Shown here: piece by piece, positions 28,200-49,659 of the stretch
Layout of the letters: each line of letters starts with the position of its first letter
Numbering within the stretch: the stretch's first letter is position 1
From: Candidatus Omnitrophota bacterium
GTDB taxonomy: Bacteria > Omnitrophota > Gorgyraeia > Zapsychrales > Zapsychraceae
NCBI GenBank assembly: GCA_015233405.1
Contig: JADFXT010000002.1
Span: forward strand, 4,451-68,450
Reading direction: 5' to 3'
DNA length: 64,000 nucleotides
The notes under the pieces: model-generated
Told to the model about the DNA's origin: nothing
What the model saw: only the letters and a program-made list of their open reading frames with translations
Databases searched by the model: none
Position numbers and translations under genes: made by a program

Positions 28200-28221
28200 A
28201 ATGACTGGTCTCCTTGTGTGG

Positions 28222-28647: not shown

Positions 28648-28648
28648 T

Positions 28649-31143: not shown

Positions 31144-31157
31144 AAGATATGCGCCTC

Positions 31158-31185
31158 GTAGGGACACGGCATGCCGTGCCCCTAC
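31158..31185 (-). promoter_or_regulatory. Intercistronic GC-rich stem-loop between pstS and pstC
   Basis: 28-nt near-palindrome. On the mRNA strand GTAGGGGCACGGCATGCCGTGTCCCTAC pairs throughout with one G:U; on the opposite strand that pair is an A.C mismatch. Confidence 0.6.
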
Positions 31186-31194
31186 AAAGTTTTT

Positions 31195-32007: not shown

Positions 32008-32040
32008 TTTACTCCTCCTTAATTGTTTTTTATTTATTTT

Positions 32041-32062
32041 AGCCCCGCTGTTTTGCGGGGCT
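32041..32062 (-). other. GC-rich hairpin between porin and pstS genes
   Basis: AGCCCCGC-N6-GCGGGGCT, 8-bp stem. No U-tract after it on the transcribed strand, so probably not a terminator. Confidence 0.4.
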
Positions 32063-32107
32063 AACTCCGCTCTCGCCCTAAGAGACCAGGACGTCGCGCC
32101 CTTCGAG

Positions 32108-33394: not shown

Positions 33395-33448
33395 GTCTCC
33401 TCCTTTTTAATTGTTGAATTGTTTTTTTCTACAACAACTATAAAAGAG

Positions 33449-33493
33449 GAACGTGAACGCTATAGGGCTAGAATGTGACAAGTTGGTGAATCC
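33449..33493 (-). promoter_or_regulatory. Candidate tandem Pho boxes upstream of the porin-pst operon
   Basis: Minus strand GATTCAC-CAAC-TTGTCAC-ATTC-TAGCCCT-ATAG-CGTTCAC. TCAC cores are phased at 11/22 bp. The array ends 10 nt before TATAGT (33437-33442). Confidence 0.45.
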
Positions 33494-33517
33494 TTGAAAA
33501 AATAAAGTGGGAGTTTT

Positions 33518-35296
33518 TTATGCTTTTGGCAGGGTAAAAGAAAATGCGGAACCACGGCCCAATTGACTCTCGACGGAAACTTCTCCGCTGTGGGCCTGGA
33601 TGATATGCTTGACGATAGACAAGCCTAACCCGGTGCCACCAAGTTCCCGAGAACGGGCTTTGTCGACACGGTAAAACCGTTCAAAGATCCTAGAGACGTC
33701 TTCTGACGGGATTCCTTCGCCGGTGTCTGCGACGGTCACAGACGCCGTGCGGGGACCTTTTTCTTCAGCAGAAATCTTGATCAATCCGCCTTCCTTATTA
33801 TATTTGATGGCGTTGTCCATGAGGTTATAAAAGACTTGGGTGATGCTTTTTTGGTCTACCCACACTTTCGGGAAATTGGACGGGATATAATTGGTAACAG
33901 TGAGATTCTTTTTTTGGATCTCACGAGACAAGGCTTCTAAGACTTGGGTCAACATCTCATTTAGATCGACAGGGACAAAATCCAGTTTTAACTTTCCGGA
34001 TTCGATCCGTGATAGATCCAGCAAATCGTTAATCAAGCTGGCTAAGCGGTTCGCGTCGGAATGAATAATTTCCACAAAATCCCGGGCGTTCTCTTTATCT
34101 TCTAAGGCCCCGTCTAGAAGTGTTTCCGCATAACCCTTGATGGTCGAGACCGGAGTGCGTAGCTCGTGGGATACGTTCGCAACAAAATCCTGGCGGATTT
34201 TTTCCAAACGCCGTAGTTCCGTAATGTCATGAAATACCAAGACCGCGCCATCATTCTGCTCTTCCTTTAGAATGGGCGTGGCATGGATCCATAAAATTTT
34301 TTCTTCGGGGATAAAAACCGCCAGCTGGCGGCTTTCCACACCCTGTTTTTTCTCGAGTGCTTTGTCCGTTAACTCCTGAATTTCGATGTTCCGGATCATT
34401 TCAAGCGGTTTTTGATGGAGATAGTCCTGATGGATATGAAACATGCGTTTTAAGGAATCATTGATAAAAAGGACCTGTCCCTTGGCATCAACCACCATCA
34501 GTCCGTCGAACATGCTTAAAAGGACGGTTTCCAATTTTGATTTATTGGATATCACTTCCTTCATCCTCAGTTTGATCTGATCAGACATTTCATTAATAGC
34601 GTCGGATAAATCCTGTATCTCATCGTTCGTCCTTATATGGCTATGTTTCGTGAAATACCCTTGGGCAATGCCTTTGGCAATCGCGGAAAGTTCCCGAACA
34701 GGTTTGGAAATAAACAAAGACGTCCAGAAGCTTAAAAGGATGGCTAAAGCAAACGCCAGGAGTAGCGCCCATAAAAGGAGTTGTTTTAACTTTGCGGAGA
34801 TCAGAGCGATCTCAGATAAGGGAATGGCTAGCCGGACAACCCCTTGAAAGTTTTTCTCAGATAATAAACCCGCGACGTAGAGCAAGTCCACTTTTAACGT
34901 CGAGCTAAATCGCCGGCTTAACCCAAAGCCGGTGTGCAAGGCTTGTTGGACTTCAGGACGATAAAGATGATTTTCAATCCCTTTGACTTGAGACAGATCC
35001 AGCTTTGAATCTCCCAAAACCACGCCGTCATTTCGGATGATCGTCACTCGTTCGTCAAGATTCTCTCCAAGTCGGTCGGCGATTGTGTCCAGGGATTCAA
35101 ACGATGGATTCTCGGGTAAATTTTCCTTTAGAGAGTTCGTCGCAACATTGAGCTTTCTGGATAAATCGGAAAGAATTCTTTGGTAAGCATTCTCGGTGAG
35201 ATTTTGGTTAAGGTCGTAATAAATAAACGTCAAGACAACGGCTGTTATAAACACCGTCACTAGAATGATCTTGGCGCGAATATTCAGATGGATCAC
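33518..35296 (-). CDS. phoR: PhoR-like sensor histidine kinase
   Basis: 592 aa. TM-periplasmic-TM, HAMP, PAS, HisKA (SHELRTPVSTIKGY) and HATPase (GTGLGLSIV); 4-nt overlap with the response regulator gene. Confidence 0.8.
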   Translation of the reverse strand: MIHLNIRAKIILVTVFITAVVLTFIYYDLNQNLTENAYQRILSDLSRKLNVATNSLKENLPENPSFESLDTIADRLGENLDERVTIIRNDGVVLGDSKLDLSQVKGIENHLYRPEVQQALHTGFGLSRRFSSTLKVDLLYVAGLLSEKNFQGVVRLAIPLSEIALISAKLKQLLLWALLLAFALAILLSFWTSLFISKPVRELSAIAKGIAQGYFTKHSHIRTNDEIQDLSDAINEMSDQIKLRMKEVISNKSKLETVLLSMFDGLMVVDAKGQVLFINDSLKRMFHIHQDYLHQKPLEMIRNIEIQELTDKALEKKQGVESRQLAVFIPEEKILWIHATPILKEEQNDGAVLVFHDITELRRLEKIRQDFVANVSHELRTPVSTIKGYAETLLDGALEDKENARDFVEIIHSDANRLASLINDLLDLSRIESGKLKLDFVPVDLNEMLTQVLEALSREIQKKNLTVTNYIPSNFPKVWVDQKSITQVFYNLMDNAIKYNKEGGLIKISAEEKGPRTASVTVADTGEGIPSEDVSRIFERFYRVDKARSRELGGTGLGLSIVKHIIQAHSGEVSVESQLGRGSAFSFTLPKA

Positions 35297-35985
35297 GCTT
35301 CCTCCTCGGAAAATTTATAACCGTAGCCGCGAATGGTCTCCAAATGCTTTCCTGCGCGGCCCAGTTTCTGACGAAGCCTTTTAACGTGTGTATCGACGGT
35401 GCGGGTGGTCACATCTGCCTGGATGTCCCAGACATCGTCTAAAAGCTGGTCTCTCGATTGAACGCGTCCAACACGGGTCATTAATGTGATCAAAAGCTTG
35501 AATTCCATCGCCGTTAACTCAACGATTTTTTCAGCAACCGTTACGGTATGGCGCGGGATATCAATGGTTATGTCCCCGATGGTGATAATATCTTTAGAGC
35601 CTTCGGGTTTCTTATTTTGAGCTCTTTTGAGGATGGCCTTGATTCTTAAAACAAGCTCTCGAGGACTAAAGGGCTTTACAATATAATCATCGGCGCCAAG
35701 CTCAAATCCCACGACGCGGTCGACCTCTTCCCCTTTGGCTGTCAACATGACAATTGGCACGCTTTGAAACTTGTTATGGGACCGAATTTGTTTACAAACT
35801 TCCAACCCGTCTATTTTAGGAAGCATGATGTCTAAGAGAATCAAGTCAACGCTCTGGGTATCCAAAACGTCAAAGGCCTCTTCGCCGGTAATCACGGCCG
35901 TGCAGGTATAGCCGGATTTCTCCAGAGCATATTTGACCAGCTTGGAAATGTTTTTGTCGTCTTCAACAATTAAAATGTGCGCCAT
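35293..35985 (-). CDS. phoB: PhoB-like OmpR-family response regulator
   Basis: REC domain (ILIVEDD...DLILLDIMLP) plus winged-helix (RGYGYKF). Start at ATG 35985 behind SD GGAGGA. The track ORF starts at 36015. Confidence 0.85.
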   Translation of the reverse strand: MAHILIVEDDKNISKLVKYALEKSGYTCTAVITGEEAFDVLDTQSVDLILLDIMLPKIDGLEVCKQIRSHNKFQSVPIVMLTAKGEEVDRVVGFELGADDYIVKPFSPRELVLRIKAILKRAQNKKPEGSKDIITIGDITIDIPRHTVTVAEKIVELTAMEFKLLITLMTRVGRVQSRDQLLDDVWDIQADVTTRTVDTHVKRLRQKLGRAGKHLETIRGYGYKFSEEEA

Positions 35986-36042
35986 ATTCCTCCAGTTTTT
36001 AACCGATGCAAACATCCTTTTCTCAAAGAATAACTTGCGGAT

Positions 36043-36060
36043 GTGACAATTTGGTGACAG
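36043..36060 (-). promoter_or_regulatory. Canonical Pho box upstream of phoB-phoR
   Basis: Minus strand CTGTCAC-CAAA-TTGTCAC matches the E. coli-type consensus CTGTCAT-A(A/T)A(A/T)-CTGTCA(C/T). A -10-like TATTCT follows 10 nt downstream. 58 nt upstream of the ATG. Confidence 0.7.
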
Positions 36061-36123
36061 CCATGTAATAAGTTCGAAAATTGCGGAAATTTTGTGAATT
36101 TTTAATCTGCTAAGGCAGAAAAG

Positions 36124-38139
36124 TTATTTTGCCTTGTGTTTTAGGTATTCCATCGCCGAAAGGATATTGATCATGACTCGCGCTTTTTCGATGGCAAACC
36201 CTCCCATGAAAAGGAGCGATTCTAAGTCGCCATACACCAGATGCTTGATGATTTTATCATGAGGATCCAGAGGAAAATCCATGTCGGCTAAAATTCGTTC
36301 ATAACGAAGCCCGACGTAAATGGTCCGCCTTAGATCCACTTGGCGAATCCCGTTAAAAAGTTGCACGCCCAGATTGGTCCTGCCGCCGTATTCCTGAACG
36401 TTTAATCCCTTTTTGACATACCCTAATTCCGAAAAAATAAGAGTTTCCGCCGTGCTAAACGGAGCGACGATCAAAAAGTCCGCATAATTGGTTTCGACCT
36501 CTTTGGCGATCTTTTTGTCGATCTGAAGCCGGCTGCGATATTCCAAGCTCCGTTCGAGCGGAGTTGGAATACAGCTCGTGGTCCGCCGGTTAAATGGTAA
36601 AAGGTTATAACAGCTGTCTGCCATGGTGCTAGAAAAGGGGCAATGATTTTCATAGATTAAGCGATAATCGCAATCGTTAGGATAATTAAACCCATACGCA
36701 CAGAAAAATGTGAACAGGATTAGCAGGATAAAACTAAAATGAATCAGCCTTGGCGTTAGAAGAACGAAGACGATCAGAAAGGCCAGAGCAAATAAAATCC
36801 ATGGCGGGAGAATATGAAAAAATAGATACAGATAGCCGGTGACGCCAGCGACGAGGATCTTGACAAAAAGCCGGGCGGTGCGTAAAGATTGGACGGTAAA
36901 GATAAATAGAAACGCCATAAACGGGGCCAATAAAAGTTGATAACGCGGAAGCATGGCGGAAAAGTTGAGATAAACCAGAAACCATAAAGCGCTGATGGTC
37001 AGCATGATCAAGACGATATAATGTTCTGTAAAAAATAATGCAAGCCTCCCTCGTTTTTCCCTCGGCTGCCGCCACCAGATGACTGATTGAATGAGAAAAA
37101 TAATCAAAGCTATTAAAAGGAGTTTTCCCCAAGGGTTTGCGGTCAGAAACGGCAAGCCGCAAAAAGCGGCTATACGGTTACCGGCAAGTTGTTCTCCGGC
37201 GATAACAGCGCGGATTTTAAACTTCACGAGCGAGATGATGAGGACCACGAGCCCGCACAATAAAAATTTCCAGCGCTTCTTTGTATCTGTTTCTTTTAAG
37301 AATAATCCGATACTAAAAATAAAGACCGTTAAACAGGCAATGACTCCGGGATCTTTAACGAAATTGGACAAGAGCGCCGTCACAGATGCGCTCACCAGCC
37401 GTCGTTGCCAGAGAAAATAGACGGCAAGCATGGCAAAAAATAAACATGGCATTTCCAAATTGAGAAGTTCCAGCATGCTTTGAAAAAGTGGCAGAGACAC
37501 AAGCAGGATGGCGCCATAGATGGCGATTTTCTCGTCGAAGGTTTGACGTAATATTTCTCGAAAAGTAACGATAACGATTGTGGCAAAGATGAAATGGAGC
37601 AAATGCATGACCAGAAGAAATATCGGCGTGCTGGGAATGATCTTCATCAGCGTGGCGATAAATAATGTATAGAAACATGTCGGATAGATCGGCGGGCCGC
37701 CTTTTGTAAACAAGTCCAGCTGAATCATGCCGATATAATTCAGGGAATGTTTATAAAGCCAAATGACGTCGATAAAAGGTCCAGTGATCGCCTCGCCATA
37801 CGGAGGGTCGAGCAAAACCTCAAACCGCGTTATGAACAAATAGGCAAAGATGATGAGCCCGAAACGGCGCGGCGTCAGTTTGTTTTGATAAATAAAACAA
37901 ATACTTAATAAGAGGACCCCGGCGAGAACTGATTTGATGGGACCTAAAAAAACAGTTTCAATCCTTCCTAAATAATAATCAAGCGGCATGCCTCCTTGGT
38001 TTCCTGCAAGCTTGTTAAGAAGGTCGTAGGATTGATGCTGGTAAAGATATTCAATGATCGGTTGGCCAAAGAATCTGAAAAAAAGAAAAAGGGCCGCCAC
38101 AGGAATAAAAATAATCCAGGGATTCCTAAAAAATTTCAC
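36124..38139 (-). CDS. Large polytopic membrane protein, possible GT-C-type glycosyltransferase / glycan polymerase
   Basis: 671 aa. At least 12 predicted TM helices plus a ~170-aa soluble C-terminus. Located 21 nt downstream of the sugar cluster. No firm motif. Confidence 0.45.
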   Translation of the reverse strand: MKFFRNPWIIFIPVAALFLFFRFFGQPIIEYLYQHQSYDLLNKLAGNQGGMPLDYYLGRIETVFLGPIKSVLAGVLLLSICFIYQNKLTPRRFGLIIFAYLFITRFEVLLDPPYGEAITGPFIDVIWLYKHSLNYIGMIQLDLFTKGGPPIYPTCFYTLFIATLMKIIPSTPIFLLVMHLLHFIFATIVIVTFREILRQTFDEKIAIYGAILLVSLPLFQSMLELLNLEMPCLFFAMLAVYFLWQRRLVSASVTALLSNFVKDPGVIACLTVFIFSIGLFLKETDTKKRWKFLLCGLVVLIISLVKFKIRAVIAGEQLAGNRIAAFCGLPFLTANPWGKLLLIALIIFLIQSVIWWRQPREKRGRLALFFTEHYIVLIMLTISALWFLVYLNFSAMLPRYQLLLAPFMAFLFIFTVQSLRTARLFVKILVAGVTGYLYLFFHILPPWILFALAFLIVFVLLTPRLIHFSFILLILFTFFCAYGFNYPNDCDYRLIYENHCPFSSTMADSCYNLLPFNRRTTSCIPTPLERSLEYRSRLQIDKKIAKEVETNYADFLIVAPFSTAETLIFSELGYVKKGLNVQEYGGRTNLGVQLFNGIRQVDLRRTIYVGLRYERILADMDFPLDPHDKIIKHLVYGDLESLLFMGGFAIEKARVMINILSAMEYLKHKAK

Positions 38140-38160
38140 CTACCCCTCCTCTTTTGTTCA

Positions 38161-39087
38161 TTATTTCGATTGGCAAGCGTCGATGATCGTCTTGGTGATG
38201 CTGGCGGTATCTAATCCGACTTGATTTCTGGCTGTTTGTTGGCAGTAAGCTTTTTCCAAAAAAATATCCGGCACTCCTAACGAGATGACCTGACAATGAC
38301 GCGGTTTTAATCCGGCCACCACCGAAGCAATGGCGCTTCCTAGTCCGCCGGTCACTTGAGCTTCTTCCAAAGAAATAATGACCGGATAACGTTCAGCGGC
38401 TTTCATAACGCCTTCGTTGTCAAAAGGCTTGAGCCACGGGGAGCTCCAAACTCCGACGGAAAATCCTTTTGCTTCTGTCTGTTTTTGGGCTTCGAGTGCT
38501 GTTATTAACATCCCGCCGGTCGAAATAATAAGCGCGTCTCGTCCATCTTTAACGGGAATCATCTTGCCGACGGTAAAGTCTGGTTTTGTTTGATGAACAA
38601 CCGGCTCGCCGGCTTTGCCTAACCGTAAATAACATGGGCCGGGCAATTCGCTGATCAATTTTGTAATGGCTTTACTCTCGACGGGGTCAGCCGGCGCGGT
38701 AACGGTCATGTTCGGTAAAGTGCGTAAAATAGCTAAATCTTCCAATCCATGGTGCGTGGCGCCTTGGGCGCCATAGGCAAATCCACCGCCGACCGCGACA
38801 ATTTTAACATTGGCTTTATGATAACAAATATCGTTACGGATCTGTTCCAGGCAACGCAGCGTCGGGAAATTTGCGATGGAATAGGTGAAAACGATTTTGC
38901 CAGACATGGCAAGCCCGGCAGCGATACCGGCCATGTTTTGTTCCGCCACACCAACGTTGACGAACCGTTTGGGAAAGCGGCTTATAAAACATTCCAGGAC
39001 GGAAAACCCGAGGTCTCCGCACAAAAGCCAGATGCGTTCGTCTTTCTCGGCTAATTCGCAAAGCGTTTCAATAAACGAAGTCCTCAC
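38161..39087 (-). CDS. Transketolase-family protein, C-terminal (pyrimidine-binding) subunit
   Basis: 308 aa. VGVAEQNMAGIAAGLA and C-terminal transketolase domain; 4-nt overlap with the N-terminal subunit gene. Confidence 0.9.
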   Translation of the reverse strand: MRTSFIETLCELAEKDERIWLLCGDLGFSVLECFISRFPKRFVNVGVAEQNMAGIAAGLAMSGKIVFTYSIANFPTLRCLEQIRNDICYHKANVKIVAVGGGFAYGAQGATHHGLEDLAILRTLPNMTVTAPADPVESKAITKLISELPGPCYLRLGKAGEPVVHQTKPDFTVGKMIPVKDGRDALIISTGGMLITALEAQKQTEAKGFSVGVWSSPWLKPFDNEGVMKAAERYPVIISLEEAQVTGGLGSAIASVVAGLKPRHCQVISLGVPDIFLEKAYCQQTARNQVGLDTASITKTIIDACQSK

Positions 39088-39896
39088 GACTCTTTCTCCA
39101 ATTCATTTAAAGCGTCTTTTAATTGTTCGTCTTTGGGCGATTTATAATGCCATTCGAGTTTGTTTTCCATAAAACTGATCCCCTTACCCTTGACGGTATG
39201 GGCAATGACGACGCTCGGTCGGTTTTGTTCAAAAGGTAGATTGCCTAACGTCGTTTCAATCGTTTCAAAATCGTGACCGTTGATTTCACGGACAGACCAG
39301 CCAAATGATTTCCATTTCTCAGCGAGAGGCTCTAAGTTCAGGACATCTTTGACGGTGCCGAAGCTTTGGATCTTGTTGTAATCCACGATAACGGTTAAAT
39401 TGTCCAGTTGATGATGTCCGGCAAAAAGAATCGCTTCCCAATTTGAGCCTTCATCTAATTCTCCGTCGCTTAATAGCGCGAAAACTCGGTATGGTTTGCC
39501 GTCTCTCTTGGCGGCCAAGGCCATGCCACAGGCGATAGGTAGTCCGTGTCCCAAAGAACCCGTCGAGACTTCTACGCCGGGAACGTGATGGCTGATATGT
39601 CCTGTCAATAACGCGCCGTCCTTGCAATAATCCTTCAGCCATTCTTTGGGGAAAAAACCTTTCTCAGCGAGGACCGCGTAAAGAATCGCGGCGGCGTGGC
39701 CTTTGCTTAAAATAAAACGGTCACGTTCTGGCCAGTCGCTTCGACGAGAGTCAACGCGTAAAATTTTGTTATATAAAACAGCGAGAATGTCGGCGATGCT
39801 TAAGCAGCTGCCGATATGCGAGGCGTTCGCCTGGTGGACCATTTTAAGCGCGTGGCTGCGGATGATCTTCGCTAATTGTTGGGATGTTGGAACCAT
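39084..39896 (-). CDS. Transketolase-family protein, N-terminal (ThDP-binding) subunit
   Basis: 270 aa. SHIGSCLS, SKGHAA and GDGELDEGSNWEA ThDP motifs. Confidence 0.9.
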   Translation of the reverse strand: MVPTSQQLAKIIRSHALKMVHQANASHIGSCLSIADILAVLYNKILRVDSRRSDWPERDRFILSKGHAAAILYAVLAEKGFFPKEWLKDYCKDGALLTGHISHHVPGVEVSTGSLGHGLPIACGMALAAKRDGKPYRVFALLSDGELDEGSNWEAILFAGHHQLDNLTVIVDYNKIQSFGTVKDVLNLEPLAEKWKSFGWSVREINGHDFETIETTLGNLPFEQNRPSVVIAHTVKGKGISFMENKLEWHYKSPKDEQLKDALNELEKES

Positions 39897-40795
39897 TGGA
39901 CGGTCTTTTCTAATCCTTGTTTTAAATTTGTTTGCGGCGTCCAGCCTGTTATTTTCTTGATCTTACGGATATCCGCCTCCAAATGCATCACTTGGTCTGG
40001 TCGATATTCTATAGCGCCAAATTGAGGCTGAATCTTAGGATTAACCAATTTTTGGATTATTTCAATGATTTTTCTTAACGGCACGGCCTTGCCGGATCCG
40101 AGATTGAAAATCCCCGGCGCGTTTGCGTAGGCTACACTTAAAATCCCTGTTGCGACATCGTCGATATAGAGATAATCCCAAAGCTGCTCGCATTTGGTGA
40201 GTTTTGGCGCGCGTCCTTGAGACAGTTCTTTAATGACATAAGGAATAAACCAGTCTGGATTGTCGTCGGGGCCGTAAGGAGAAAAAAGCCGGACCCAAGA
40301 GCCGGTCATTCCCGAAGCTTGGCAAAGCCCCAAAGCGGACCAAGAAGTGGCCACCTTAGACTTGCCGTAAAGCGTCGTCGGGTTTGTCGGAAACAGTTCA
40401 TCAACTTTTTGATTCGGGTTGCCGTATTCCGCCTGGGAACCTATGCCGATCCAATGAGCGCATCCGACGTCATAAGCCAGTTGCACGAGGTCCAGCGTAA
40501 AGGGAAGATTGTTTGTGATTTGAAATAATTCATTTCGGTCTTTCCCTCCCACGCCCTGCCACGCCGCATGAATAAAAATATCAGGCTTTAATGATTTGAT
40601 CTTTTGAAGGTTCTTTTTCTCGAGGAGAGTTTCATAATTAAACAGATAAACGCCTTTAACATTTTTGATGCGTGTTAAGTCGGAAGATTCTCTTTTAAGC
40701 GCAATGACCCGGTTGCCGTCTTTAGCGGCTTGTTTGATCAAGGCCGCGCCGACAAATCCGCTTGCGCCTGTTATGATAATGGTTTTTTTTGTCAT
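39872..40795 (-). CDS. NAD-dependent sugar epimerase/reductase (SDR family)
   Basis: 307 aa. TGASGFVG Rossmann motif and YGKSK catalytic YxxxK. Confidence 0.85.
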   Translation of the reverse strand: MTKKTIIITGASGFVGAALIKQAAKDGNRVIALKRESSDLTRIKNVKGVYLFNYETLLEKKNLQKIKSLKPDIFIHAAWQGVGGKDRNELFQITNNLPFTLDLVQLAYDVGCAHWIGIGSQAEYGNPNQKVDELFPTNPTTLYGKSKVATSWSALGLCQASGMTGSWVRLFSPYGPDDNPDWFIPYVIKELSQGRAPKLTKCEQLWDYLYIDDVATGILSVAYANAPGIFNLGSGKAVPLRKIIEIIQKLVNPKIQPQFGAIEYRPDQVMHLEADIRKIKKITGWTPQTNLKQGLEKTVQWFQHPNN

Positions 40796-40796
40796 A

Positions 40797-42041
40797 TTAA
40801 TTCCATTTCCCCGCCATCACGTCGATCACTGACTTAAACTGGGCAGCAGAATATCCTAATGGCAAGCAATCTTCCAAAATTTCTTTCATATAACCGTAAC
40901 TGAATACAATGACCTCATCGACGGGAGATTTTTTTAGATGGTCGAGCCCGTACACAGGAAGATGAGACTTCGGAGAATAAATCCCTTCCCCTTTTAATTT
41001 TTTATCGATCAGATATTTCATTTTTCCGGCGGAAGATGTTGCCGCCAGCGTCATAATGGCCCGGCCACCTGCGCCATAGCCAGCGACGGATTTCCCTGCA
41101 CGCACAGTTTTTTCAATGAACGCGTCTAAATTTTTTATGCCCTCTTTGATTTTGTCCGCTTGTTCGGTATAGAAACTCAGGCGATTGTATTGTTCCAATT
41201 GAACTTTAGGTGTTTTCCTGGACGAAAACCGCGAGGATTTGGGCGTGGCAATAAAAATCAATGAATTGGCGCGGCGGACAGATTCCGGGATCAGGTCAAA
41301 ATCGATCACCGTTAGTCCGGCTTTTTCCATGACCATCTGGGCTGTCGCCCGCGTTAAATAAATGGTATGTTCATGTTCTAAAAGGCAATATTCCCGACGG
41401 GATAACAATTTTTCGAGGTCGTGGACTTCAATGACCAAAAGCCCTGTTTGAGGGTCGAGAATCGAGCTTACTGCTTCCAGGAATTTAAAAGGCTCTGGAA
41501 GATGGTCAAACGTGTAGGATAAAAGAATAATGTCGGCTTTTTTAAAATCCGCTGGAAGTTTGGAAATGGATGACGAGTCGAATAATCCTTGAATCGACGG
41601 CACACCTTTTTCTTCAGCTTTCTTGACCAATGGCGCGGAAGGTTCATAGCCTAAAACCCGGCAGCCTTTTTCTTTAAAGAAGCGCAATTGTTCGCCGTCC
41701 CCGCTTCCTACCTCCAAAACTTTAAGCCCAGGGGCGTTATCGAAATAAGTTTTTAGGACAGATGCGGCGACATATTCCATGAATTGAGATGCAATTTTTG
41801 ATGCAGCGACGGAATAATGATAGGTATCGTAATAGGCGGATAAATCCGCATTATGTAAGGTCTGAACGGTCTGGCAGTCTTCGCAGAAATAAATATCGAT
41901 GTCCGCCAGAAATTCTTTTCCGAAGGTTTTGTCCGTGACATATTCATCCGTTAAAGGCATCTGAGGCAGCGTAAGGATTTTAACGACGCGAGTGGATTGG
42001 CAAATGCGGCAGGTTTTTTGATAAGCGATCTTAACGCTCAT
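40797..42041 (-). CDS. SAM-dependent NDP-hexose C-methyltransferase-like protein
   Basis: N-terminal Zn-ribbon (CRIC...CEDC), class I SAM motif VLEVGSGDG, C-terminal C-methyltransferase-type domain. Start taken at ATG 42041; the track uses GTG 42077. Confidence 0.8.
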   Translation of the reverse strand: MSVKIAYQKTCRICQSTRVVKILTLPQMPLTDEYVTDKTFGKEFLADIDIYFCEDCQTVQTLHNADLSAYYDTYHYSVAASKIASQFMEYVAASVLKTYFDNAPGLKVLEVGSGDGEQLRFFKEKGCRVLGYEPSAPLVKKAEEKGVPSIQGLFDSSSISKLPADFKKADIILLSYTFDHLPEPFKFLEAVSSILDPQTGLLVIEVHDLEKLLSRREYCLLEHEHTIYLTRATAQMVMEKAGLTVIDFDLIPESVRRANSLIFIATPKSSRFSSRKTPKVQLEQYNRLSFYTEQADKIKEGIKNLDAFIEKTVRAGKSVAGYGAGGRAIMTLAATSSAGKMKYLIDKKLKGEGIYSPKSHLPVYGLDHLKKSPVDEVIVFSYGYMKEILEDCLPLGYSAAQFKSVIDVMAGKWN

Positions 42042-43086
42042 GGGTGTATTCCTGGATTTGGTTGAGGCAAAGCGCACGGGCGTTTTGTTTGTTTTCCTGT
42101 TTGTACCAGTTAACGGTCATTTCGACGGATTCTTTAATATTTAAGCGTGGATGCCAGTTTAATTCCTTCTTCGCTTTTGAAATGTTAAGGCTTAAGAGTT
42201 TTGTTTCGTGGAGATCTTTGGACGTGTGGATGTCCTGCCAACGGCCTTGTCCCCAATATTTGATGACCAGATCTGCTATTTTTCCGACGGGAACAATGGA
42301 TTGCCTTTCGGGCCCAAAGTTAAAGGCCTGCGCAAATTGTTTTTCATTATTAAGTAACTTTTCACCCAGAAGCAAATATCCGTAAAGAGGTTCCAACACA
42401 AATTGCCACGGACGCGTGGATTTGGGATTTCGAATTTTAATTGGCTGATTTTTTTTAAGCGCGCGGATACAATCCGGCAAAAGCCGGTCTTTGGAAAAAT
42501 CCCCTCCGCCGATAATATTTCCTGCCCGGGCAGATGCGACTAAGATGCCTTTCTCGGCAAAGAAAGACTTGCGGTAGGATTCTATAATGAGCTCTGCGAC
42601 CGCTTTGCTGGTGCTGTAAGGGTCATGCCCGCCCAGCTCGTCGGTTTCTTTATATCCTTTATTCGTTTCTTTATTTTTGTAGCATTTGTCCGTCGTGATA
42701 ATAACGCCTTTGTTTAAGAAGGGAAATTCTCTCAAGCACTCAAGGACATTGACGGTTCCTAAGGCATTACTTTCAAAGGTCGTTTTGGGATTCGCATAAG
42801 AGTCTCTGACCAATGGCTGGGCCGCGAGATGAAAAACCATTTGGGGTTTGTATTTGAGGATTACGTTCTTTAAAGATTTAAAGTCTGCGACGTCTCCTCT
42901 TTGATCAACAATATCTTTGGCGAGGTTGGTTTCTTTAAAAAGATAGTTATTGTCCCACTGAGGAAGGGAATATCCGATGACTTTCGCGCCGAGCTGATGA
43001 AGCCAAAGGCTTAACCACGCGCCTTTAAATCCCGTATGCCCTGTGACGAGAATTTTTTTATTTTTATAAATTCCGGAAAAATTCAT
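42031..43086 (-). CDS. rfbG: CDP-glucose 4,6-dehydratase
   Basis: VTGHTGFKGAWL, YSTSK (YxxxK) and overall RfbG layout. Start taken at ATG 43086, 5 nt after the rfbF stop; the track uses GTG 43128. Confidence 0.9.
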   Translation of the reverse strand: MNFSGIYKNKKILVTGHTGFKGAWLSLWLHQLGAKVIGYSLPQWDNNYLFKETNLAKDIVDQRGDVADFKSLKNVILKYKPQMVFHLAAQPLVRDSYANPKTTFESNALGTVNVLECLREFPFLNKGVIITTDKCYKNKETNKGYKETDELGGHDPYSTSKAVAELIIESYRKSFFAEKGILVASARAGNIIGGGDFSKDRLLPDCIRALKKNQPIKIRNPKSTRPWQFVLEPLYGYLLLGEKLLNNEKQFAQAFNFGPERQSIVPVGKIADLVIKYWGQGRWQDIHTSKDLHETKLLSLNISKAKKELNWHPRLNIKESVEMTVNWYKQENKQNARALCLNQIQEYTHER

Positions 43087-43091
43087 CGAGG

Positions 43092-43874
43092 TTACCACAA
43101 TTTCCACGGAGCTTGGTTTTGAGCCCACAATTCATTCAGAAGTTTCATGTCTCTTAAGGTGTCCATCGGCTGCCAGAATCCGTCGTGCAGATACGCCATG
43201 AGCTGGCGTTTAGAAACCAGTTTTTCAATGGGGTCTTGCTCGAACGGCATATGGTCTCCGGCGATATAATCTAAGACCTCCGGCTCTAAGACAAAAAATC
43301 CACCGTTGATCCATCCTTCGCGTAAACGCGATTTTTCAAAAAATTTCGTGACGGTTTGGTTTTCCAAATCAAGACCGCCGAACCGCGCTTCGGGACGAAC
43401 GGCCGTGACTGTGGCTAATTTGCCGTGCTTTTTATGAAAGCGGATAAGTTTTTCAATGTCCACATTGGAAACCCCGTCGCCGTATGTCATCAAGAATGTA
43501 TCATTCCCGATCCATTCTTTAAGCCTTTTGATACGTCCGCCGGTTTGTGTTTTATATCCGGTATCAATTAAATGCACTTTCCAGTCTTCCGGCGGCTGGC
43601 CGTGGACCACAGCCTTTCCGTTTTTGGTGTGAACGGTCAAGTCTCGTCCGAAATAATGGTAGTCGAGAAAATAACGTTTAATAAATTCGCTTTTATACCC
43701 TAAGGCCACCAGGAATTCATTAAATCCAAAGGAGGAATAGATCTTCATGATATGCCAGAGAATGGGTTTCTCTCCGATTTGCACCATCGGCTTGGGCATG
43801 CTGGAGGTTTCTTCCTGAAGGCGCGACCCGACCCCTCCGGCGAGAATAACCACTTTCATGCTTTTTTTCGTCAT
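43092..43874 (-). CDS. rfbF: Glucose-1-phosphate cytidylyltransferase
   Basis: 260 aa. VILAGGVGSRL...PKPMV, YGDGVSNVDI and DTLRD motifs typical of RfbF. Confidence 0.9.
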   Translation of the reverse strand: MTKKSMKVVILAGGVGSRLQEETSSMPKPMVQIGEKPILWHIMKIYSSFGFNEFLVALGYKSEFIKRYFLDYHYFGRDLTVHTKNGKAVVHGQPPEDWKVHLIDTGYKTQTGGRIKRLKEWIGNDTFLMTYGDGVSNVDIEKLIRFHKKHGKLATVTAVRPEARFGGLDLENQTVTKFFEKSRLREGWINGGFFVLEPEVLDYIAGDHMPFEQDPIEKLVSKRQLMAYLHDGFWQPMDTLRDMKLLNELWAQNQAPWKLW

Positions 43875-43899
43875 AATATTTTCTCCGTCTCGGTTTCGC

Positions 43900-44838
43900 T
43901 TAGTCGAAATTAATGCGTTCTTTTTCTACCACCATCGGCCTTTTTAGGCTTCGGATATGCATAAGGCCGATATATTCGCCGAGAATTCCGATAAAAAATA
44001 ATTGAACAGAAAACAGGAAAAAAACGGCGATGATCAGAGGCGCCATTCCCATGGGGAACATGGGCCAGAAAAGTAATTTGGCTATCAAATATCCGACGGC
44101 AATTAAAAAGCTCAAGCTCGCCATAAAAAAACCGGCAATGGTCGCAATTTTTAAAGGCACGCGGGAGTGGCTGGTAATGCCGATCATGGCATAATCGTAA
44201 AGTTTGTAAACGTTTCGATATTTGCTTCTCCCCCGTTTTCGTTCGGCCTGACGATATTCGATCTTAGCACTTTCAAACCCGAGCTCGGCGATAAGCCCCC
44301 GCAAATAGGGATAAGTGTCCGGCATCTCCCGAAAGATGGCAACGACTTTTTTGTCGTACAATCCGAAACCGTTAAAGTGCGTGTCCAGTTCAACGTCGGA
44401 TAATTTGTTGGCGAAACGATAGTAACAGCTTCTTAATTTATATATGAAATGATTTTCCTCGCTGGAGGTCTTGATGCCTTTAACCACGGGAAAGCCTTCT
44501 TCCCATTTGCGGATGAATTCCGGAATCATGGCCGGAGGGTCTTGCATGTCTGCCGCGATAAACACAACTCCGTCGCCGCGGGCTTGGCAAAGTCCGTAAA
44601 AAATCGAGCGGATATCTCCGAAATTTCTTGTGTTAACGATGATCTTGACGTTGTGGTCTTTTTTAGCCAAGTCTTTGAGGATGCTGACGGTTTTATCCTC
44701 GGAGGAATTGTCGATAAAGATGTGTTCGTAGTCATATTTTTCTAGACGATTAAAGATGTCTTTGATCTGGCGATAAATTTCTTCGACATTTTCTTCCTCA
44801 TTGTAACAAGGCGTCACGATGCTGATCAATTTCTTCAT
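43900..44838 (-). CDS. GT2 polyprenyl-phosphate glycosyltransferase (GtrB/ArnC/DPM1-like)
   Basis: 312 aa. N-terminal GT-A fold (VTPCYNEE...IDNSSEDKT...ADMQDPP) plus two C-terminal TM helices. Confidence 0.85.
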   Translation of the reverse strand: MKKLISIVTPCYNEEENVEEIYRQIKDIFNRLEKYDYEHIFIDNSSEDKTVSILKDLAKKDHNVKIIVNTRNFGDIRSIFYGLCQARGDGVVFIAADMQDPPAMIPEFIRKWEEGFPVVKGIKTSSEENHFIYKLRSCYYRFANKLSDVELDTHFNGFGLYDKKVVAIFREMPDTYPYLRGLIAELGFESAKIEYRQAERKRGRSKYRNVYKLYDYAMIGITSHSRVPLKIATIAGFFMASLSFLIAVGYLIAKLLFWPMFPMGMAPLIIAVFFLFSVQLFFIGILGEYIGLMHIRSLKRPMVVEKERINFD

Positions 44839-44859
44839 AAATGTTTTCCTTTGGATAAA

Positions 44860-45935: not shown

Positions 45936-47804
45936 TCATGGATGAGGCCGTGAGACCTGATATAAAGAGAATATTTTATTACTATAAATATGTTTTAATA
46001 ATGCATTATCGGACGGCGGGCGAGCATAATGCATAAAAACGATATAATCGACGTTGTATTTGAAAATGGCCTTCTGAAGCGCCAGGGTATATGGTTCGGA
46101 AGGAAAGACTTTGAAGGTTTCAATGTCTTTGATTCGTCTTTCCCACTCTAAAGCGGCGTTATAGTCAAATCCGACAATCCCGCAATCGCGAAAACAGGCA
46201 ATGATTTTCCGTTCAGAAAAAATGCGGAAGCCGCCCATTTCCATATTATAAGGCACGAGGAGCATAGCGTCTTTGGGTGTGTTTTGCTGGACGTATCGTT
46301 GCATCTCTTCCCACTGGTCCTGAAGTTCCCAAAATCCTGACTGCCTGTTTTGAGGCTGATCAAAGGTGTAGTGATAATAGGAAAATTGGAAGGAAAACAT
46401 GACCAAGGGAATAACATAAAAGAATTTTCTTAGAGAACCAAAAGACGTGTTTTTTCTCGCCCAGGTTTCGTAACAGTAAATCAACGTCAGTAATACGAGA
46501 ATGACTCCTAGGTTAATTCTTGCAAATGACCGTAAAGGCAATGTGCTCTGGAGATAGATGATCAGGATAATACCCGCAAGAAAAGTGACGGCGGTCAACG
46601 CAAGCAGCGTATGCTGAAGCGGCGTCTTATTTTCCCGACGTGAAATTGTCACAAACGTAAATGTCAGTAATATTAAAATTATAGCGATGGGCTCGATCGG
46701 ATGCCCATATTTTAAAAGAGTTAGAAAAATAGCCAGGATAAATCCGATCCATAACGGTCCGTTTTCAATCGTTTCCATTAAAAGGATTAGTAAATATCCC
46801 ATGAGGAAGAATGACAGAAATTGAATGTTCCGGATGAGATTGAGGTCCAGGGCGAATTTATTGGGAGCGACGTAGGAAAACAAGAAACAAAAGAACAATA
46901 AAATTGAGGCGGAGAAACATAGTGCTTGTGTTTTTTTATCCTTGATAAAACGAGGATTGAAAAAAATGTTCGTGAGAAATATTACGGCGAGCACGGCATA
47001 GGGAATGGCTTCTTTGAGATTCATGGTTAACGGAGCGCCGGGCGTTAAAAGAAAGTTCTGTGGGCAGGCGATCTTATAAAGAGTTAGCCAGTCGGAAGCC
47101 CCGGGAATAGGGATGATCGGCGGTTTATTAAAACGGGTGCTGATCGTCCAGATCAGAAAAGGTAAGCTGAAAATCGCATAGAAGAAAACGGATTGGACCA
47201 GCGTCTTTACGCCGTGTTTTTTGTTTTGCCATAACAGGTAGCTTCCTATAAAGACCATCGGAAACAGGCTGTAAAGGGCATGGAAGTTGGCGGCGATTCC
47301 TAAAATGACTGCTGCCAGGACAAAGCGTTCTTTGTAGAAAAAATAAATTCCGGCAAAGACAAAGGCCAGAGTAAACTCCTCGTGGGACATGGTCCGGTAC
47401 AGAAATTCATCCACGCGCACCATGACGATAAAGGCGATGATATACCAGAAGGCCCGCGATCCATTTTCGGCTAAAAGCCGCCAGAGTTTAAACATCCAGA
47501 AAAACATGAAGTATCTAGAAAGAAGAAATAAAATAAAATAAACGGTTGGGATCTGCTTAACGGTGATCAATCGTGCCAGGATAGGAAAGAAAAACGAGGT
47601 GAAATTTTTCTTGAGGCTCTCGACGTAATAATCCCCCTGATAGAGCGAGTGGTCGATGAGGCTTTTGAGCATCGGGAGTTCCAGATGCTGGTCGTCCCAG
47701 CCGTAGTGATAACCGTTCGAGGCCAGGAAGATCAAGAGAATGATGAGCGCGATAAACCAATCGGATCGTAGGAATTTGGGAAGATGCGTTCTAAGAGAAT
47801 CCAT
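45936..47804 (-). CDS. Large polytopic membrane protein, possible GT-C-type glycosyltransferase
   Basis: 622 aa. Many TM helices; acidic first-loop motif YGWDDQH; soluble C-terminal domain. No SD in front of the ATG. Confidence 0.45.
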   Translation of the reverse strand: MDSLRTHLPKFLRSDWFIALIILLIFLASNGYHYGWDDQHLELPMLKSLIDHSLYQGDYYVESLKKNFTSFFFPILARLITVKQIPTVYFILFLLSRYFMFFWMFKLWRLLAENGSRAFWYIIAFIVMVRVDEFLYRTMSHEEFTLAFVFAGIYFFYKERFVLAAVILGIAANFHALYSLFPMVFIGSYLLWQNKKHGVKTLVQSVFFYAIFSLPFLIWTISTRFNKPPIIPIPGASDWLTLYKIACPQNFLLTPGAPLTMNLKEAIPYAVLAVIFLTNIFFNPRFIKDKKTQALCFSASILLFFCFLFSYVAPNKFALDLNLIRNIQFLSFFLMGYLLILLMETIENGPLWIGFILAIFLTLLKYGHPIEPIAIILILLTFTFVTISRRENKTPLQHTLLALTAVTFLAGIILIIYLQSTLPLRSFARINLGVILVLLTLIYCYETWARKNTSFGSLRKFFYVIPLVMFSFQFSYYHYTFDQPQNRQSGFWELQDQWEEMQRYVQQNTPKDAMLLVPYNMEMGGFRIFSERKIIACFRDCGIVGFDYNAALEWERRIKDIETFKVFPSEPYTLALQKAIFKYNVDYIVFMHYARPPSDNALLKHIYSNKIFSLYQVSRPHP

Positions 47805-47842
47805 AATTTTTTTAAAATTGGCTGATGGAAAGAAGTTTGTTT

Positions 47843-47998
47843 ACCCCGTCAGTTGGCGGGATTCGGCTCGAGCTTTATCCTGTCCGTTGACTGGATTCCG
47901 TCCGATTCCGCTTTTGGCGGAATTCATCGGACTTCATCCTGTCCGTTGACTGGATTCCGCTCGATTCCGTCTTTGGACGGAACCAATCGAGCTTCATC
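47843..47998 (-). repeat. 59-bp tandem repeat (2 full units plus 1 collapsed unit) with bulged hairpins
   Basis: The 24-nt core ATCCTGTCCGTTGACTGGATTCCG occurs at 47877-47900 and 47936-47959, with a degenerate copy at 47843-47866. Hairpins lie at 47900-47932 and 47960-47991. The array abuts the GT2 stop codon. Confidence 0.8.
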
Positions 47999-48698
47999 GC
48001 CAGTAGAAAATTTCACGGAAAACTTCGTACATATAGGCAGCGCCCCAGCGTAAGACTTGAAGTTTCCTCTCCCCTCCATCTCTGGCGGGTTCATCGCCGG
48101 GAATTTCAGCGATCTTGAGTTTCCGTTTTGCGGCGCGGATAGATAACAGAGGCTCCCAGCTAATGTTCGTCTTAAAGAGCTTTTCTTCGGTCTCATAACT
48201 GGAGTCTTGGTCCAGATTTAATTCATAAATAAGATTTTTGCGGTAAGCGCGGTAAATGACCATGGCGTCGGTATAATTCCCGCCGTGAAACCAATTGATA
48301 AAAGAGGTGAACATTTTATTCCCAAAAGAGGTGACGGCATCATCGTCGTAGCTTTTGGCTCCCTGGGCATATCGGGAGACTATGACCATATCATAGCCTT
48401 CCTTCATTTTTGCGATACACGGCGGAATCAGTTCTGGAATGGAATTGCCGTCCGGGCTAAAGGTCAAAACCACATCTCCACGCACCAAAGGCCAGGCTTC
48501 CATATAGGCGTGGCGCATTCCCTTTTTTTTCTGAATGACATATTCACAGCCATGCTCTTTGAAGTAATCCAAAGTTCCGTCGGTGGATTGACCGTCCACA
48601 TAAAGGATCTGGTCCACCCATTCGGGCTGGACGCGGGGCATAATGCTTTTGAGCCCGTCGATTTCATTTAAAGTGGGAATCAGTAAGGTGATTTTCAT
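47994..48698 (-). CDS. GT2 family glycosyltransferase (DPM1-like, soluble)
   Basis: 234 aa. IPTLNE...VDGQSTDGT...SPDGN GT-A motifs. ATG is 21 nt after the tRNA-Gly 3' end. Confidence 0.85.
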   Translation of the reverse strand: MKITLLIPTLNEIDGLKSIMPRVQPEWVDQILYVDGQSTDGTLDYFKEHGCEYVIQKKKGMRHAYMEAWPLVRGDVVLTFSPDGNSIPELIPPCIAKMKEGYDMVIVSRYAQGAKSYDDDAVTSFGNKMFTSFINWFHGGNYTDAMVIYRAYRKNLIYELNLDQDSSYETEEKLFKTNISWEPLLSIRAAKRKLKIAEIPGDEPARDGGERKLQVLRWGAAYMYEVFREIFYWR

Positions 48699-48719
48699 AA
48701 AATCTTTCGTGAAAATTAA

Positions 48720-48793
48720 TGGAGCGGGCGATGAGAATCGAACTCACGTATCCAGCTTGGAAGGCTAGTGTTCTACCACTGAACTACGCCCGC
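48720..48793 (-). tRNA. tRNA-Gly (UCC)
   Basis: Hand-folded: GCGGGCG acceptor, GTTC/GAAC D-stem, anticodon loop CUUCCAA, TTCGATT T-loop, CCA encoded. 74 nt. Confidence 0.95.
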
Positions 48794-48904
48794 AAATAAC
48801 CACAGAATCTTTTCAATGGTTTTGCCTGATGCTCAACCATTCCCTCGGACATTTCGTCCTCGGTCAAACTTGCCAGTCCCGCCGGTGTTAGGCGGGGCGC
48901 CCGC
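48794..48904 (-). repeat. tRNA-leader module copy A (heptamer GCGGGCG + GC-rich structured core + leader)
   Basis: Homologous to 49546-49659. Hairpins at 48878-48896 and 48815-48841. The distal heptamer at 48898-48904 is identical to the tRNA-Gly 5' end. Confidence 0.6.
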
Positions 48905-48908
48905 AAAA

Positions 48909-48945
48909 AAGTTATAAGCAATAGGTGATAAGTTATAAGAAAAAA
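48909..48945 (-). repeat. Left inverted repeat of the four-helix-bundle cassette
   Basis: AAGTTATAAGCAATAGGTGATAAGTTATAAGAAAAA pairs with 49334-49362: 25/29 matching positions including G:U, plus a 7-nt bulge. Confidence 0.7.
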
Positions 48946-49296
48946 TTAAGACCGTAATGATCGAATCAAACCGGTGAGTAATTTGCCGATTTCTTCTGAC
49001 TGAAATTTTAACTCCAAATATTTTTCTTCACGATAATAATGCAGGTCTTTTGCGAGAATAAGATAATATTTGGTTTCTTCCAAAGAGCCTTGTGCTATAT
49101 CGAGAAAGCGCGCAAAATCTTTTCTTGTTTTTTTATGCCCTTCGGCAATATTTACACAAATGGAAAACGTTGAACGTCTGATTTGGCTAATAATCCCGAC
49201 GGATTCTTCTTTCGGGAAATCTTTTGTTATTCTGTAGATTTCTATAACAAAGATGTGTGCTTTTTGCCAAACAATAAGATTCTCAAAACTGTTCAT
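48946..49296 (-). CDS. Four-helix-bundle protein (23S rRNA intervening-sequence protein / Avd-like family)
   Basis: 116 aa. Family hallmarks: LIVWQKAH...IYRITKDFPKEE...ISQIRRS..SI..NIAEG, QGSL.E and a helical C-terminus. Strong SD GGAGGGG. Confidence 0.85.
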   Translation of the reverse strand: MNSFENLIVWQKAHIFVIEIYRITKDFPKEESVGIISQIRRSTFSICVNIAEGHKKTRKDFARFLDIAQGSLEETKYYLILAKDLHYYREEKYLELKFQSEEIGKLLTGLIRSLRS

Positions 49297-49545: not shown

Positions 49546-49659
49546 AATTTTCCACTAAAATGTTTTCAAAGATGGTTTCGCAGATGCTCAACCACTCCCT
49601 CGGACATTACGTCTTCGGTCAGAATTGCCAGTCCCGACGACTTTTGTCGGGGCGCCAGC
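49546..49659 (-). repeat. tRNA-leader module copy B (heptamer GCTGGCG + GC-rich structured core + leader)
   Basis: Homologous to 48794-48904. Hairpins at 49633-49651 and 49572-49595. The distal heptamer at 49653-49659 is identical to the tRNA-Thr 5' end. Confidence 0.6.

Follow-up and report, generated by a model that had tools for sequence, protein, structure and literature searches.

A tandem array of hairpins and palindromic 24-mers in the spacer between a GT2 gene and a DUF6798 gene of Candidatus Omnitrophota

Results

The gene pair and the repeat in its spacer

We analysed a stretch of 64,000 nucleotides of Candidatus Omnitrophota bacterium (contig JADFXT010000002.1, positions 4,451 to 68,450), called the window below, in which the spacer between two genes of the minus strand is occupied by a tandem array of stem-loops. 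The upstream gene (47994-48698, minus strand, 234 aa) belongs to the GT2 glycosyltransferases (PF00535) and resembles polyprenyl- and dolichyl-phosphate hexose transferases, with scores below the cut-offs of these families. The downstream gene (45936-47804, minus strand) encodes a polytopic membrane protein of 622 aa (HQL24_01755, whose next-nearest homologue is 50% identical) for which Pfam gives DUF6798 only. The spacer (47805-47993) is 189 nt long and consists of the following parts, named in the sense of the mRNA and listed in the direction of the genes; R1 is a covariance model of the repeat unit.

47994-47996, minus strand: GT2 stop codon UGA, the GT2 homologues terminating at the same residue
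47936-47995, minus strand: unit 1, 60 nt, made of UGA-AG, hairpin A1 and 24-mer B1
47959-47992, minus strand: hairpin A1, with a 7-bp outer stem, a 4-nt 5' bulge UGGU, a 6-bp inner stem and a CAAA loop
47936-47959, minus strand: 24-mer B1, CGGAAUCCAGUCAACGGACAGGAU, an imperfect palindrome following the linker CGGA
47877-47935, minus strand: unit 2, 59 nt, made of GAAG, hairpin A2 and 24-mer B2
47900-47932, minus strand: hairpin A2, of A1-like architecture, with the bulge GAAU, a loop longer by 1 nt and one inner pair deleted
47877-47900, minus strand: 24-mer B2, an exact repeat of B1
47843-47876, minus strand: collapsed unit 3, 34 nt, made of AAAG, CUCGAG and the degenerate 24-mer B3
47867-47872, minus strand: CTCGAG, an A-type outer stem from which everything between two TCGA words is gone
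47843-47866, minus strand: degenerate 24-mer B3, CCGAAUCCCGCCAACUGACGGGGU, agreeing at 18 of 24 positions and scoring 17.3 bits with model R1
47805-47842, minus strand: leader of 38 nt, A/U-rich, unstructured according to its fold and without a Shine-Dalgarno sequence according to its duplex energy, abutting the AUG of the DUF6798 gene (47802-47804)

A prediction previously made from the letters of this DNA alone (hereafter the original prediction) had described a 59-bp tandem repeat with two full units and a collapsed one, and this is what the spacer contains, including the loss of the inner hairpin in unit 3, which leaves CTCGAG. It had the repeat begin at the GT2 stop codon, which is nearly right, the start falling in fact inside this codon, but in a spacer of 190 bp, which is one too many. 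The 24-mer that it held to be invariant in each unit is identical in units 1 and 2 and matches in the third at 18 positions out of 24. This word, CGGAATCCAGTCAACGGACAGGAT, is found in exactly two copies (47936-47959 and 47877-47900), a count of two which no shuffled sequence reached; the word GAUGAAG is common to the end of GT2 and to the end of the 24-mer. The period of 59 or 60 nt was recovered by a repeat search of the spacer, and Tandem Repeats Finder did not report the array. There are four GGAATC words, arranged as pairs with a distance of 10 nt.

Neither gene of the pair has a Shine-Dalgarno sequence, as had been stated for the 622-aa gene (duplex energy +1.2 kcal/mol), a property shared by about a quarter of the genes of the window. 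No sigma-70-like promoter and no intrinsic terminator were predicted within the spacer, nor any such promoter on the gene strand, whether inside the array or beyond it; the spacer hairpins precede CGGAAUCC or UAAAC, so that the combination of a GC-rich hairpin and a U-tract is not found. A scan of positions 47000-49000 with the covariance models of Rfam, up to an expect value (E) of 10, returned only tRNA-Gly and one chance match located outside the spacer.

The GT2 stop codon also forms, in the sequence AUGA, an overlapping AUG, from which an open reading frame of 40 codons (MKLDWFRPKTESSGIQSTDRMKSDEFRQKRNRTESSQRTG, 47875-47997, minus strand) runs through both full repeat units. We treated this frame as probably fortuitous and rejected it as a real gene, since a search of 5.8 billion proteins gave no homologue and since unit 2 is frame-shifted with respect to unit 1.

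Predicted folding and differences between the units

The two hairpins, announced as unlike in sequence and alike in architecture, fold as stated: A1, whose first pair stands 2 nt past the GT2 stop codon, has a predicted energy of -18.7 kcal/mol (z -3.7) and A2 one of -17.4 kcal/mol (z -3.9). The 24-mer is an imperfect palindrome, AUCC-a-GUC[AACG]GAC-a-GGAU, which is weak on its own (-5.6 kcal/mol, z -1.5). Because the 24-mer is self-complementary, B1 and B2 are able to pair around A2; the segment B1/A2/B2 is then predicted to form an extended hairpin of 87 nt (47873-47959, -36.1 kcal/mol, z -6.2), and this clamp is the form taken by the minimum-free-energy fold of the whole spacer, which reaches a z of about -6 on either strand. 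The palindromy of the 24-mer and the B1-B2 clamp are additions to the original prediction, which had missed both.

When A1 is compared to A2, the adjacent outer pairs 5-36 and 6-35 are changed on both sides (C-G/U-A into U-A/C-G), one inner U-A pair has lost both its bases, and every other pair is intact, with three of the four bulge bases being different and the loop being longer by one base. We estimated at 0.004 the probability that four random substitutions in the stems spare all 13 pairs. The differences between units 1 and 2 are located in the hairpin, where they affect 10 of 33 sites, as against none of the 28 sites of GAAG and the 24-mer (Fisher P 0.0012). A shuffle test of the covariation has no power at two sequences, the observed value being reached by 121 of 500 shuffles. 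The original prediction had concluded from the compensatory changes that the structure is under selection. Its first half stands, as the pairing is kept (two swaps, one co-deletion, nothing broken) and the palindromy is maintained from one unit to the other; its second half does not follow, two copies being unable to separate selection from mutation templated by the hairpin itself. B3, which departs from B1 and B2 at 6 of 24 positions, still gives a hairpin (-8 kcal/mol), in which C-G stands in place of the A.A mismatch, U.G replaces one U-A, and one pair no longer forms. This U.G wobble, which pairs in the mRNA sense alone, is a weak pointer that would favour RNA over DNA as the level at which the array acts.

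Search for other copies

The search for the 24-mer and for a covariance model of the unit, which had been proposed with the original prediction, was run on the window and on the relatives, and it yielded no further copy. With up to 3 mismatches, the 24-mer has no occurrence in the 64 kb beyond the local ones; model R1, run with the filters off, finds the three local copies only in the window and nothing better than E 0.76 in 80 orthologous loci. A degenerate pattern spanning all three copies of the 24-mer was searched in the GTDB species genomes (0 matches), in IMG/VR (0 matches) and in the metagenomes of the Joint Genome Institute (JGI), where a lone match lies inside an unrelated coding sequence without hairpins and was rejected as due to chance. 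Similarly, a blastn-short comparison of the spacer with the loci of the relatives gave just chance words of 12-13 nt; there was no match to plasmids and there were only chance matches to phages (E 0.6), and the six-frame peptides of the repeat had no counterpart among the 5.8 billion proteins at E up to 10. The array is absent from the 82 orthologous Omnitrophota loci described below. Exact-protein look-ups with DUF6798, GT2 and GpsA brought up no second assembly of the strain. The original prediction had counted uniqueness to this locus and absence from close relatives against its own proposal, and this is what is seen within the 64 kb and the relatives, none of which is close, the nearest DUF6798 homologue being the one 50% identical. 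Hence, within the sequence searched, the array appears as an orphan, found at a single locus of a single lineage and having no detectable relatives.

Three possible origins were tried and rejected. The alignment of the repeat to the four tRNAs of the window scores no better than shuffled sequences. A word shared with the 5' coding end of the DUF6798 gene, CGAUUGGUU, is not significant, as 19% of control windows equal it. As to an integron attC site, core sites of the form GTTRRRY/RYYYAAC are lacking on inspection, and the array is flanked by a conserved gene pair and not by cassettes.

The locus in other Omnitrophota

We collected 80 orthologous loci from the GTDB species genomes and 2 more by exact-protein look-up, that is 82 (individual loci are denoted by L and a number). 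GT2 stands directly upstream of the DUF6798 gene and in the same orientation in at least 57 of them, the GT2 proteins being 68-81% identical. Between the GT2 stop and the DUF6798 start there are, in 55 relatives, -28 to +137 nt (median about 16), ATGA-type overlaps included; in most relatives the genes overlap or are at most 25 nt apart, and the 189 nt of the window make the longest spacer of all. Since this junction is normally tight, the array is an insertion or an expansion. The pair is part of a wider order, tRNA-Thr(tgt), tRNA-Tyr(gta), tRNA-Gly(tcc), GT2, DUF6798, gpsA, which recurs across Omnitrophota; in roughly one in three of the loci scanned, tRNA-Pro(ggg) comes after gpsA.

In those relatives tRNA-Pro(ggg) lies about 1.1-1.5 kb past the end of the DUF6798 gene. 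In the window, the interval between gpsA and tRNA-Pro (27275-27348) holds about 17.5 kb of genes for sugar modification (27349-44859), the four genes nearest gpsA coding for a GT2, a nucleotidyltransferase, a dehydratase/epimerase and a C-methyltransferase. This segment looks like an island inserted into a conserved locus flanked by tRNAs.

Most of the long spacers of the relatives are long because they hold strongly folding palindromes of their own, unrelated to the array: that of L032 (137 nt) contains an unrelated palindrome of -44.6 kcal/mol, that of L002 (84 nt, -34.8 kcal/mol) is terminator-like with a U-run, that of L077 contains two hairpins unrelated to the array, that of L082 has one 12-bp hairpin immediately past the GT2 stop, and those of L006 and L083 contain inverted doublets with TGTCAT termini, similar to the doublets of repetitive extragenic palindromes (REP) known as REPINs. 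The overall picture suggests that the GT2/DUF6798 spacer tolerates palindromic DNA and repeatedly acquires it.

The inverted doublets, which we call the GTCAT type, are present in four copies (L006:2380-2476, L006:4535-4612, L083:654-716 and L041:2207-2275) of the pattern TGTCATYCCnGn-loop-nCnGGRATCC ... GGATYCCnGC-loop-GCnGGRATGACA. Two of the four occupy the GT2/DUF6798 spacer (in L006 and L083), the second copy of L006 comes after the DUF6798 gene and the copy of L041 adjoins tRNAs. In the eight half-sites pairing is complete (100%) and 4 pairs covary; a covariance model, R2, was built from them. Some short words are similar in the doublets and in the array (ATTCCGC...GCGGAAT against ATTCCCGC...GCGGGAAT, and ...GGAUGA against ...GGGAUGAC). 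However, the doublets are inverted and end in TGTCAT, whereas the array is a direct tandem; the consensus TGTCAT-YCCnGn-loop-nCnGGR-ATCC is not found in it, and model R2 has no match in 47800-48000 at E up to 10. We have therefore kept the array outside the GTCAT-type family, membership of which is ruled out by R2 despite the shared words. The half-site of the doublets also fits the pattern of the dRS3 repeat of Neisseria, ATTCCC-N8-GGGAAT.

One resemblance to the array was found among the relatives: 13 of the 14 nt of CTRACGGGGTAAAC are common to the post-stop hairpin of L082 and to the 3' arm and tail of B3 (shuffle P about 0.001, for one of about 58 spacer comparisons). L082 was rejected as a sister lineage carrying an orthologous hairpin, its protein being no closer to that of the window than others are. 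Its nearest retrieved DUF6798 relative, P0047 (58%, apparently locus L012), has a spacer of 45 nt and apparently no such hairpin. The hairpin of L082 and B3 could go back to a common older post-stop hairpin or to a shared element, which we mention as a lead only.

The DUF6798 protein

The original prediction had called the downstream gene a GT-C glycosyltransferase gene. This label can be retained at the level of the fold and not at that of the sequence, where Pfam sees DUF6798 only and where a profile built on 26 homologues matches no sequence in the PDB. In the AlphaFold2 model of the protein (predicted local distance difference test, pLDDT, of 89), the ten best fold matches in the PDB are GT-C enzymes (AftA, STT3, ALG12 and PglB among them), PimE coming at rank 12; these matches are marginal, with E about 1e-3 and a template-modelling (TM) score of about 0.4. 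The profile also displays an invariant W-D-D-Q-H (WDDQH) motif in the first loop. In Omnitrophota a well-conserved GT2 of 234 aa precedes DUF6798 nearly always, and gpsA comes after it in the loci inspected. Together with the neighbouring GT2, which is similar to polyprenyl-phosphate-sugar synthases, the fold matches make it reasonable but not proven to consider the 622-aa protein as GT-C-like, and it is so called below.

Discussion

A proposed stem-loop array of the REP/BIME kind

We hold with moderate confidence that the array is a lineage-specific set of stem-loops of the kind of REP and of bacterial interspersed mosaic elements (BIME), which would lie in a shared mRNA, uncouple its two cistrons and maybe buffer its decay. 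The role of intercistronic processing or stability element, which figured among the proposals of the original prediction, would thus be the most plausible one, given the stable hairpins, the conserved co-oriented pair and the lack of a predicted promoter or terminator. REP/BIME of enterobacteria, for instance those of malE-malF, are imperfect palindromes of 20-40 nt, arranged in tandem clusters and extragenic within a transcription unit, which show compensatory differences between copies and form stable stem-loops right after a stop codon without any U-tract; the array resembles them in all this. A1 and A2 are indeed stable imperfect palindromes (z about -3.8), the 24-mer alone being weak, and they are extragenic inside a putative transcription unit, the two co-oriented genes being adjacent in at least 57 loci. 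REPs differ from the array in that they exist as tens to hundreds of dispersed copies, usually alternating in orientation within a BIME, whereas the array occupies one locus, has all its units direct and no other copy in the 64 kb, and lacks a 5' signature of the GTAG type. It recalls REPINs too by its two-hairpin module and by the palindromic 24-mers around A2, which can make one long hairpin, but A and B, its two halves, are not inverted repeats of one another, its units are direct and its locus is single. REPs are transcribed extragenic palindromes (PMC3116915, PMC3337134), and REPINs are inverted REP doublets mobilised by the REP-associated tyrosine transposases, RAYT (PMC3116915).

From what is observed, namely the sequence with its predicted structures, the pairing that is kept, the lack of the array in relatives and the order of the genes, we infer the following consequences. 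A palindromic module of two hairpins would have been amplified locally to 2.5 copies of about 60 nt and would have widened the junction between GT2 and the GT-C-like gene. Since A1 starts 2 nt past the GT2 stop, the terminating ribosome would have to unwind it and thus would melt A1. About 150 nt of stable structure would abolish the coupling of termination to reinitiation which can be expected in the relatives with overlapping genes, and the GT-C-like gene would then need a fresh initiation on an unstructured, A/U-rich leader without a Shine-Dalgarno sequence, so that its translation would be independent and probably weaker. The hairpins would also block 3'-to-5' exonucleases, and a cleavage in the leader, which is A/U-rich, would leave a GT2 segment longer-lived than the segment downstream, in which case the 1:1 ratio of the two products would be lost. 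We assume read-through transcription by default, because neither a sigma-70-like promoter nor an intrinsic terminator was predicted in the spacer. As for precedents, REP stem-loops reportedly stabilise the upstream mRNA in malEFG, according to Newbury et al. in 1987, and REPs situated at most about 15 nt from a stop codon are said by Liang, Rudd and Deutscher, in 2015, to lower the translation of the upstream gene. The decay of mRNAs which contain REPs needs RNase R and polynucleotide phosphorylase, PNPase (PMC12320835).

Several points weigh against this interpretation. The co-transcription of GT2 and DUF6798, on which it depends, is judged from gene order alone. Where many dispersed copies of a REP would be expected, neither the pattern nor model R1 shows another copy in the 64 kb. 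The array is not conserved in any relative, many of which have overlapping genes, and therefore it has no function that this gene pair requires. As there are only two full copies, selection on the structure is inseparable from hairpin-templated mutation or from gene conversion. A stem-loop role alone does not account for 24-mers that are perfectly identical beside hairpins about 30% divergent, and the other strand folds equally well, which leaves room for a role at the level of DNA.

Other explanations

The most serious alternative, which we regard as possible though clearly less probable, is that the array is neutral or selfish DNA: a small palindromic element, or a palindrome prone to slippage, would have landed in a permissive spacer and been duplicated by replication slippage, the seemingly compensatory changes would come from template switching or hairpin-templated repair, by which one arm is copied onto the other at a stroke, and the identity of the 24-mers from a recent gene conversion. 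That hairpins can arise and be maintained through template switching has been documented (PMC8794818), the adjacency of the two covarying pairs suits a single event, and unit 3, in its collapsed form, has the look of a deletion between two TCGA microhomologies. The restriction of the array to one lineage, its absence from 82 orthologous loci and the unrelated palindromic inserts found in the same spacer of other species, including the REPIN-like GTCAT doublets of L006 and L083, are also what this explanation leads one to expect. However, three of the four bulge bases have changed without a single stem pair being broken and with the 24-mer intact (P 0.0012), which constraint explains more easily; an insert so stable, placed 2 nt past a stop codon, would probably affect the mRNA anyway; and no other member of the putative mobile family was met in any of the collections searched. 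The identity of the 24-mers, while the hairpins around them diverge, would be expected from recognition of the sequence by a protein, as would be the case if the array were a DNA operator, where a dimeric factor bound to the 20-bp palindromes ATCCAGTC-N4-GACAGGAT, 59 bp apart, or to pairs of GGAATC, controlled an internal promoter of the GT-C-like gene. This would fit the four GGAATC words in pairs 10 nt apart, and the fact that the array folds and reads equally well on both strands. Yet there is no sigma-70-like promoter on the gene strand in the array or after it, no further copy of the palindromes occurs in the 64 kb even with 3 mismatches allowed, and the relatives, with many genes overlapping, bear no sign of an internal promoter; moreover the third copy has lost 6 of its 24 positions and still pairs, by means of a U.G wobble which has a meaning only in RNA. 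We have retained the operator as an unlikely explanation, mainly for want of another explanation for the exact identity of the 24-mers.

The recognition could also bear on the RNA. The original prediction had envisaged a platform for an RNA-binding protein such as CsrA, and in this case the array, with CsrA or with another protein, would sequester a regulator or control the translation of the GT-C-like gene. The nine GGA triplets that it had counted are there, against about 3-4 expected (nominal enrichment, shuffle P 0.006), the invariant 24-mer could be a protein site, and an alternative fold at the junction of units 1 and 2, GGAC-AGGAUGAA-GUCC, would put a GGA in a loop. Like the CsrB/RsmZ sponges and the leaders bound by CsrA, the array is thus a structured RNA with repeated GGA words; it has the CsrB-type motif CAGGAUG, but once and not in each unit. 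The excess of GGA stems from a single word, GGAAUC (3' arm of the hairpin and start of the 24-mer), which was copied along with the unit. Seven of the nine GGA are paired with a probability of about 1 in the predicted ensemble and the two others lie in the 4-nt linker between A and B, none being in an apical loop; it is for this reason that the CsrA proposal fails. The GGA nearest to the start codon (47880) is 76 nt from the AUG (47804), where there is no Shine-Dalgarno sequence to occlude. Unlike CsrB/RsmZ, the array is not a separate gene for a small RNA, neither Csr/Rsm nor any other Rfam family was recognised in the spacer, and it is not conserved in relatives. A tblastn search with the CsrA proteins of E. 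coli and B. subtilis found no csrA in the window and in the loci of 80 relatives, which is uninformative for the rest of the genome. Altogether we consider such a platform very unlikely. An RNA switch, selected, modular and specific to the lineage, in which the 24-mers would serve as protein or mutual recognition sites, local hairpins would alternate with the B1-A2-B2 clamp and the bulged hairpins would set the passage of ribosomes or RNases from the GT2 to the GT-C-like message, is improbable as well, though not to the same degree; if it were true, the 14-mer shared with L082 would mark an older regulatory hairpin placed after the stop codon in this gene pair. Finally, two exact repeats of 24 nt and a decayed terminal one, separated by 35-36 nt, have the format of a degenerate mini-array of the CRISPR type, in its lengths as in its last repeat. 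This resemblance is effectively refuted by the fact that the two "spacers" are homologous hairpins and not unrelated captures. The third one has just 10 nt, the array lies inside a conserved operon, no Cas domain was detected in the ten neighbouring open reading frames scanned, and the pattern is without a match in the viral collection IMG/VR.

If the array does act as a set of REP/BIME-like stem-loops, it would be a small natural case of a palindromic insert uncoupling a translationally coupled pair, in a phylum for which we know of no genetics and of almost no RNA biology. It is a familiar kind of element, which brings nothing general beyond the earlier work on REP/BIME. The results on its context are the more useful ones, namely the conserved order of tRNA genes, GT2, DUF6798 and gpsA, and the spacer as a recurrent landing site for palindromes.

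Other elements near the locus and in relatives

A repeat of 84 nt is present in two copies, 82% identical, at 48821-48904 and 49576-49659 of the window (minus strand), about 30 nt upstream of tRNA-Gly and tRNA-Thr. The first 7 nt of each copy are those of the 5' acceptor strand of the next tRNA downstream (GCGGGCG before tRNA-Gly, GCTGGCG before tRNA-Thr); a hairpin comes next, whose sequence varies but remains paired, and then ACTGGCAA. The same motif, matching each time its own downstream tRNA, was seen at L064:832-880, L026:1075-1104, L023:1808-1899 and L050:775-801, and the Gly copy of the window has no match in Rfam. The 7 nt could be a target duplication made by a small element, or the whole could be a conserved leader of tRNA operons. 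Fragments of about 15 nt from the 5' end of tRNA-Thr (L023:1940-1985) and of tRNA-Gly (L041:2283-2325) are fused to a common sequence, TCCCGC-nnnn-GCGGGACAAAARCGC, which looks like the scar of an element integrating into the D-arm region of tRNA genes. Within the tRNA-Thr/Tyr/Gly cluster of the window, between tRNA-Tyr and the second 84-nt repeat, there is a gene (48946-49296, minus strand) for a 23S-rRNA-intervening-sequence protein, a four-helix bundle of the bAvd type (PF05635, E 1e-37).

Among eight same-strand spacers of the window which were tested, one other is strongly structured (32008-32107, minus strand, z -3.5 to -4.8). It contains a 10-bp hairpin, UUAGCCCCGC-AAAACA-GCGGGGCUAA, followed by an A-run and by a strong Shine-Dalgarno sequence, AGGAGG, and its sequence is unrelated to the array. 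At 2525-2590, in a long stretch devoid of open reading frames of at least 150 aa, there are two tandem copies of 32 nt (94% identical and 34 nt apart) of an AT-rich palindrome, ATATTATTATGAGCATATGCTAATAATAACGT, which looks like an operator.

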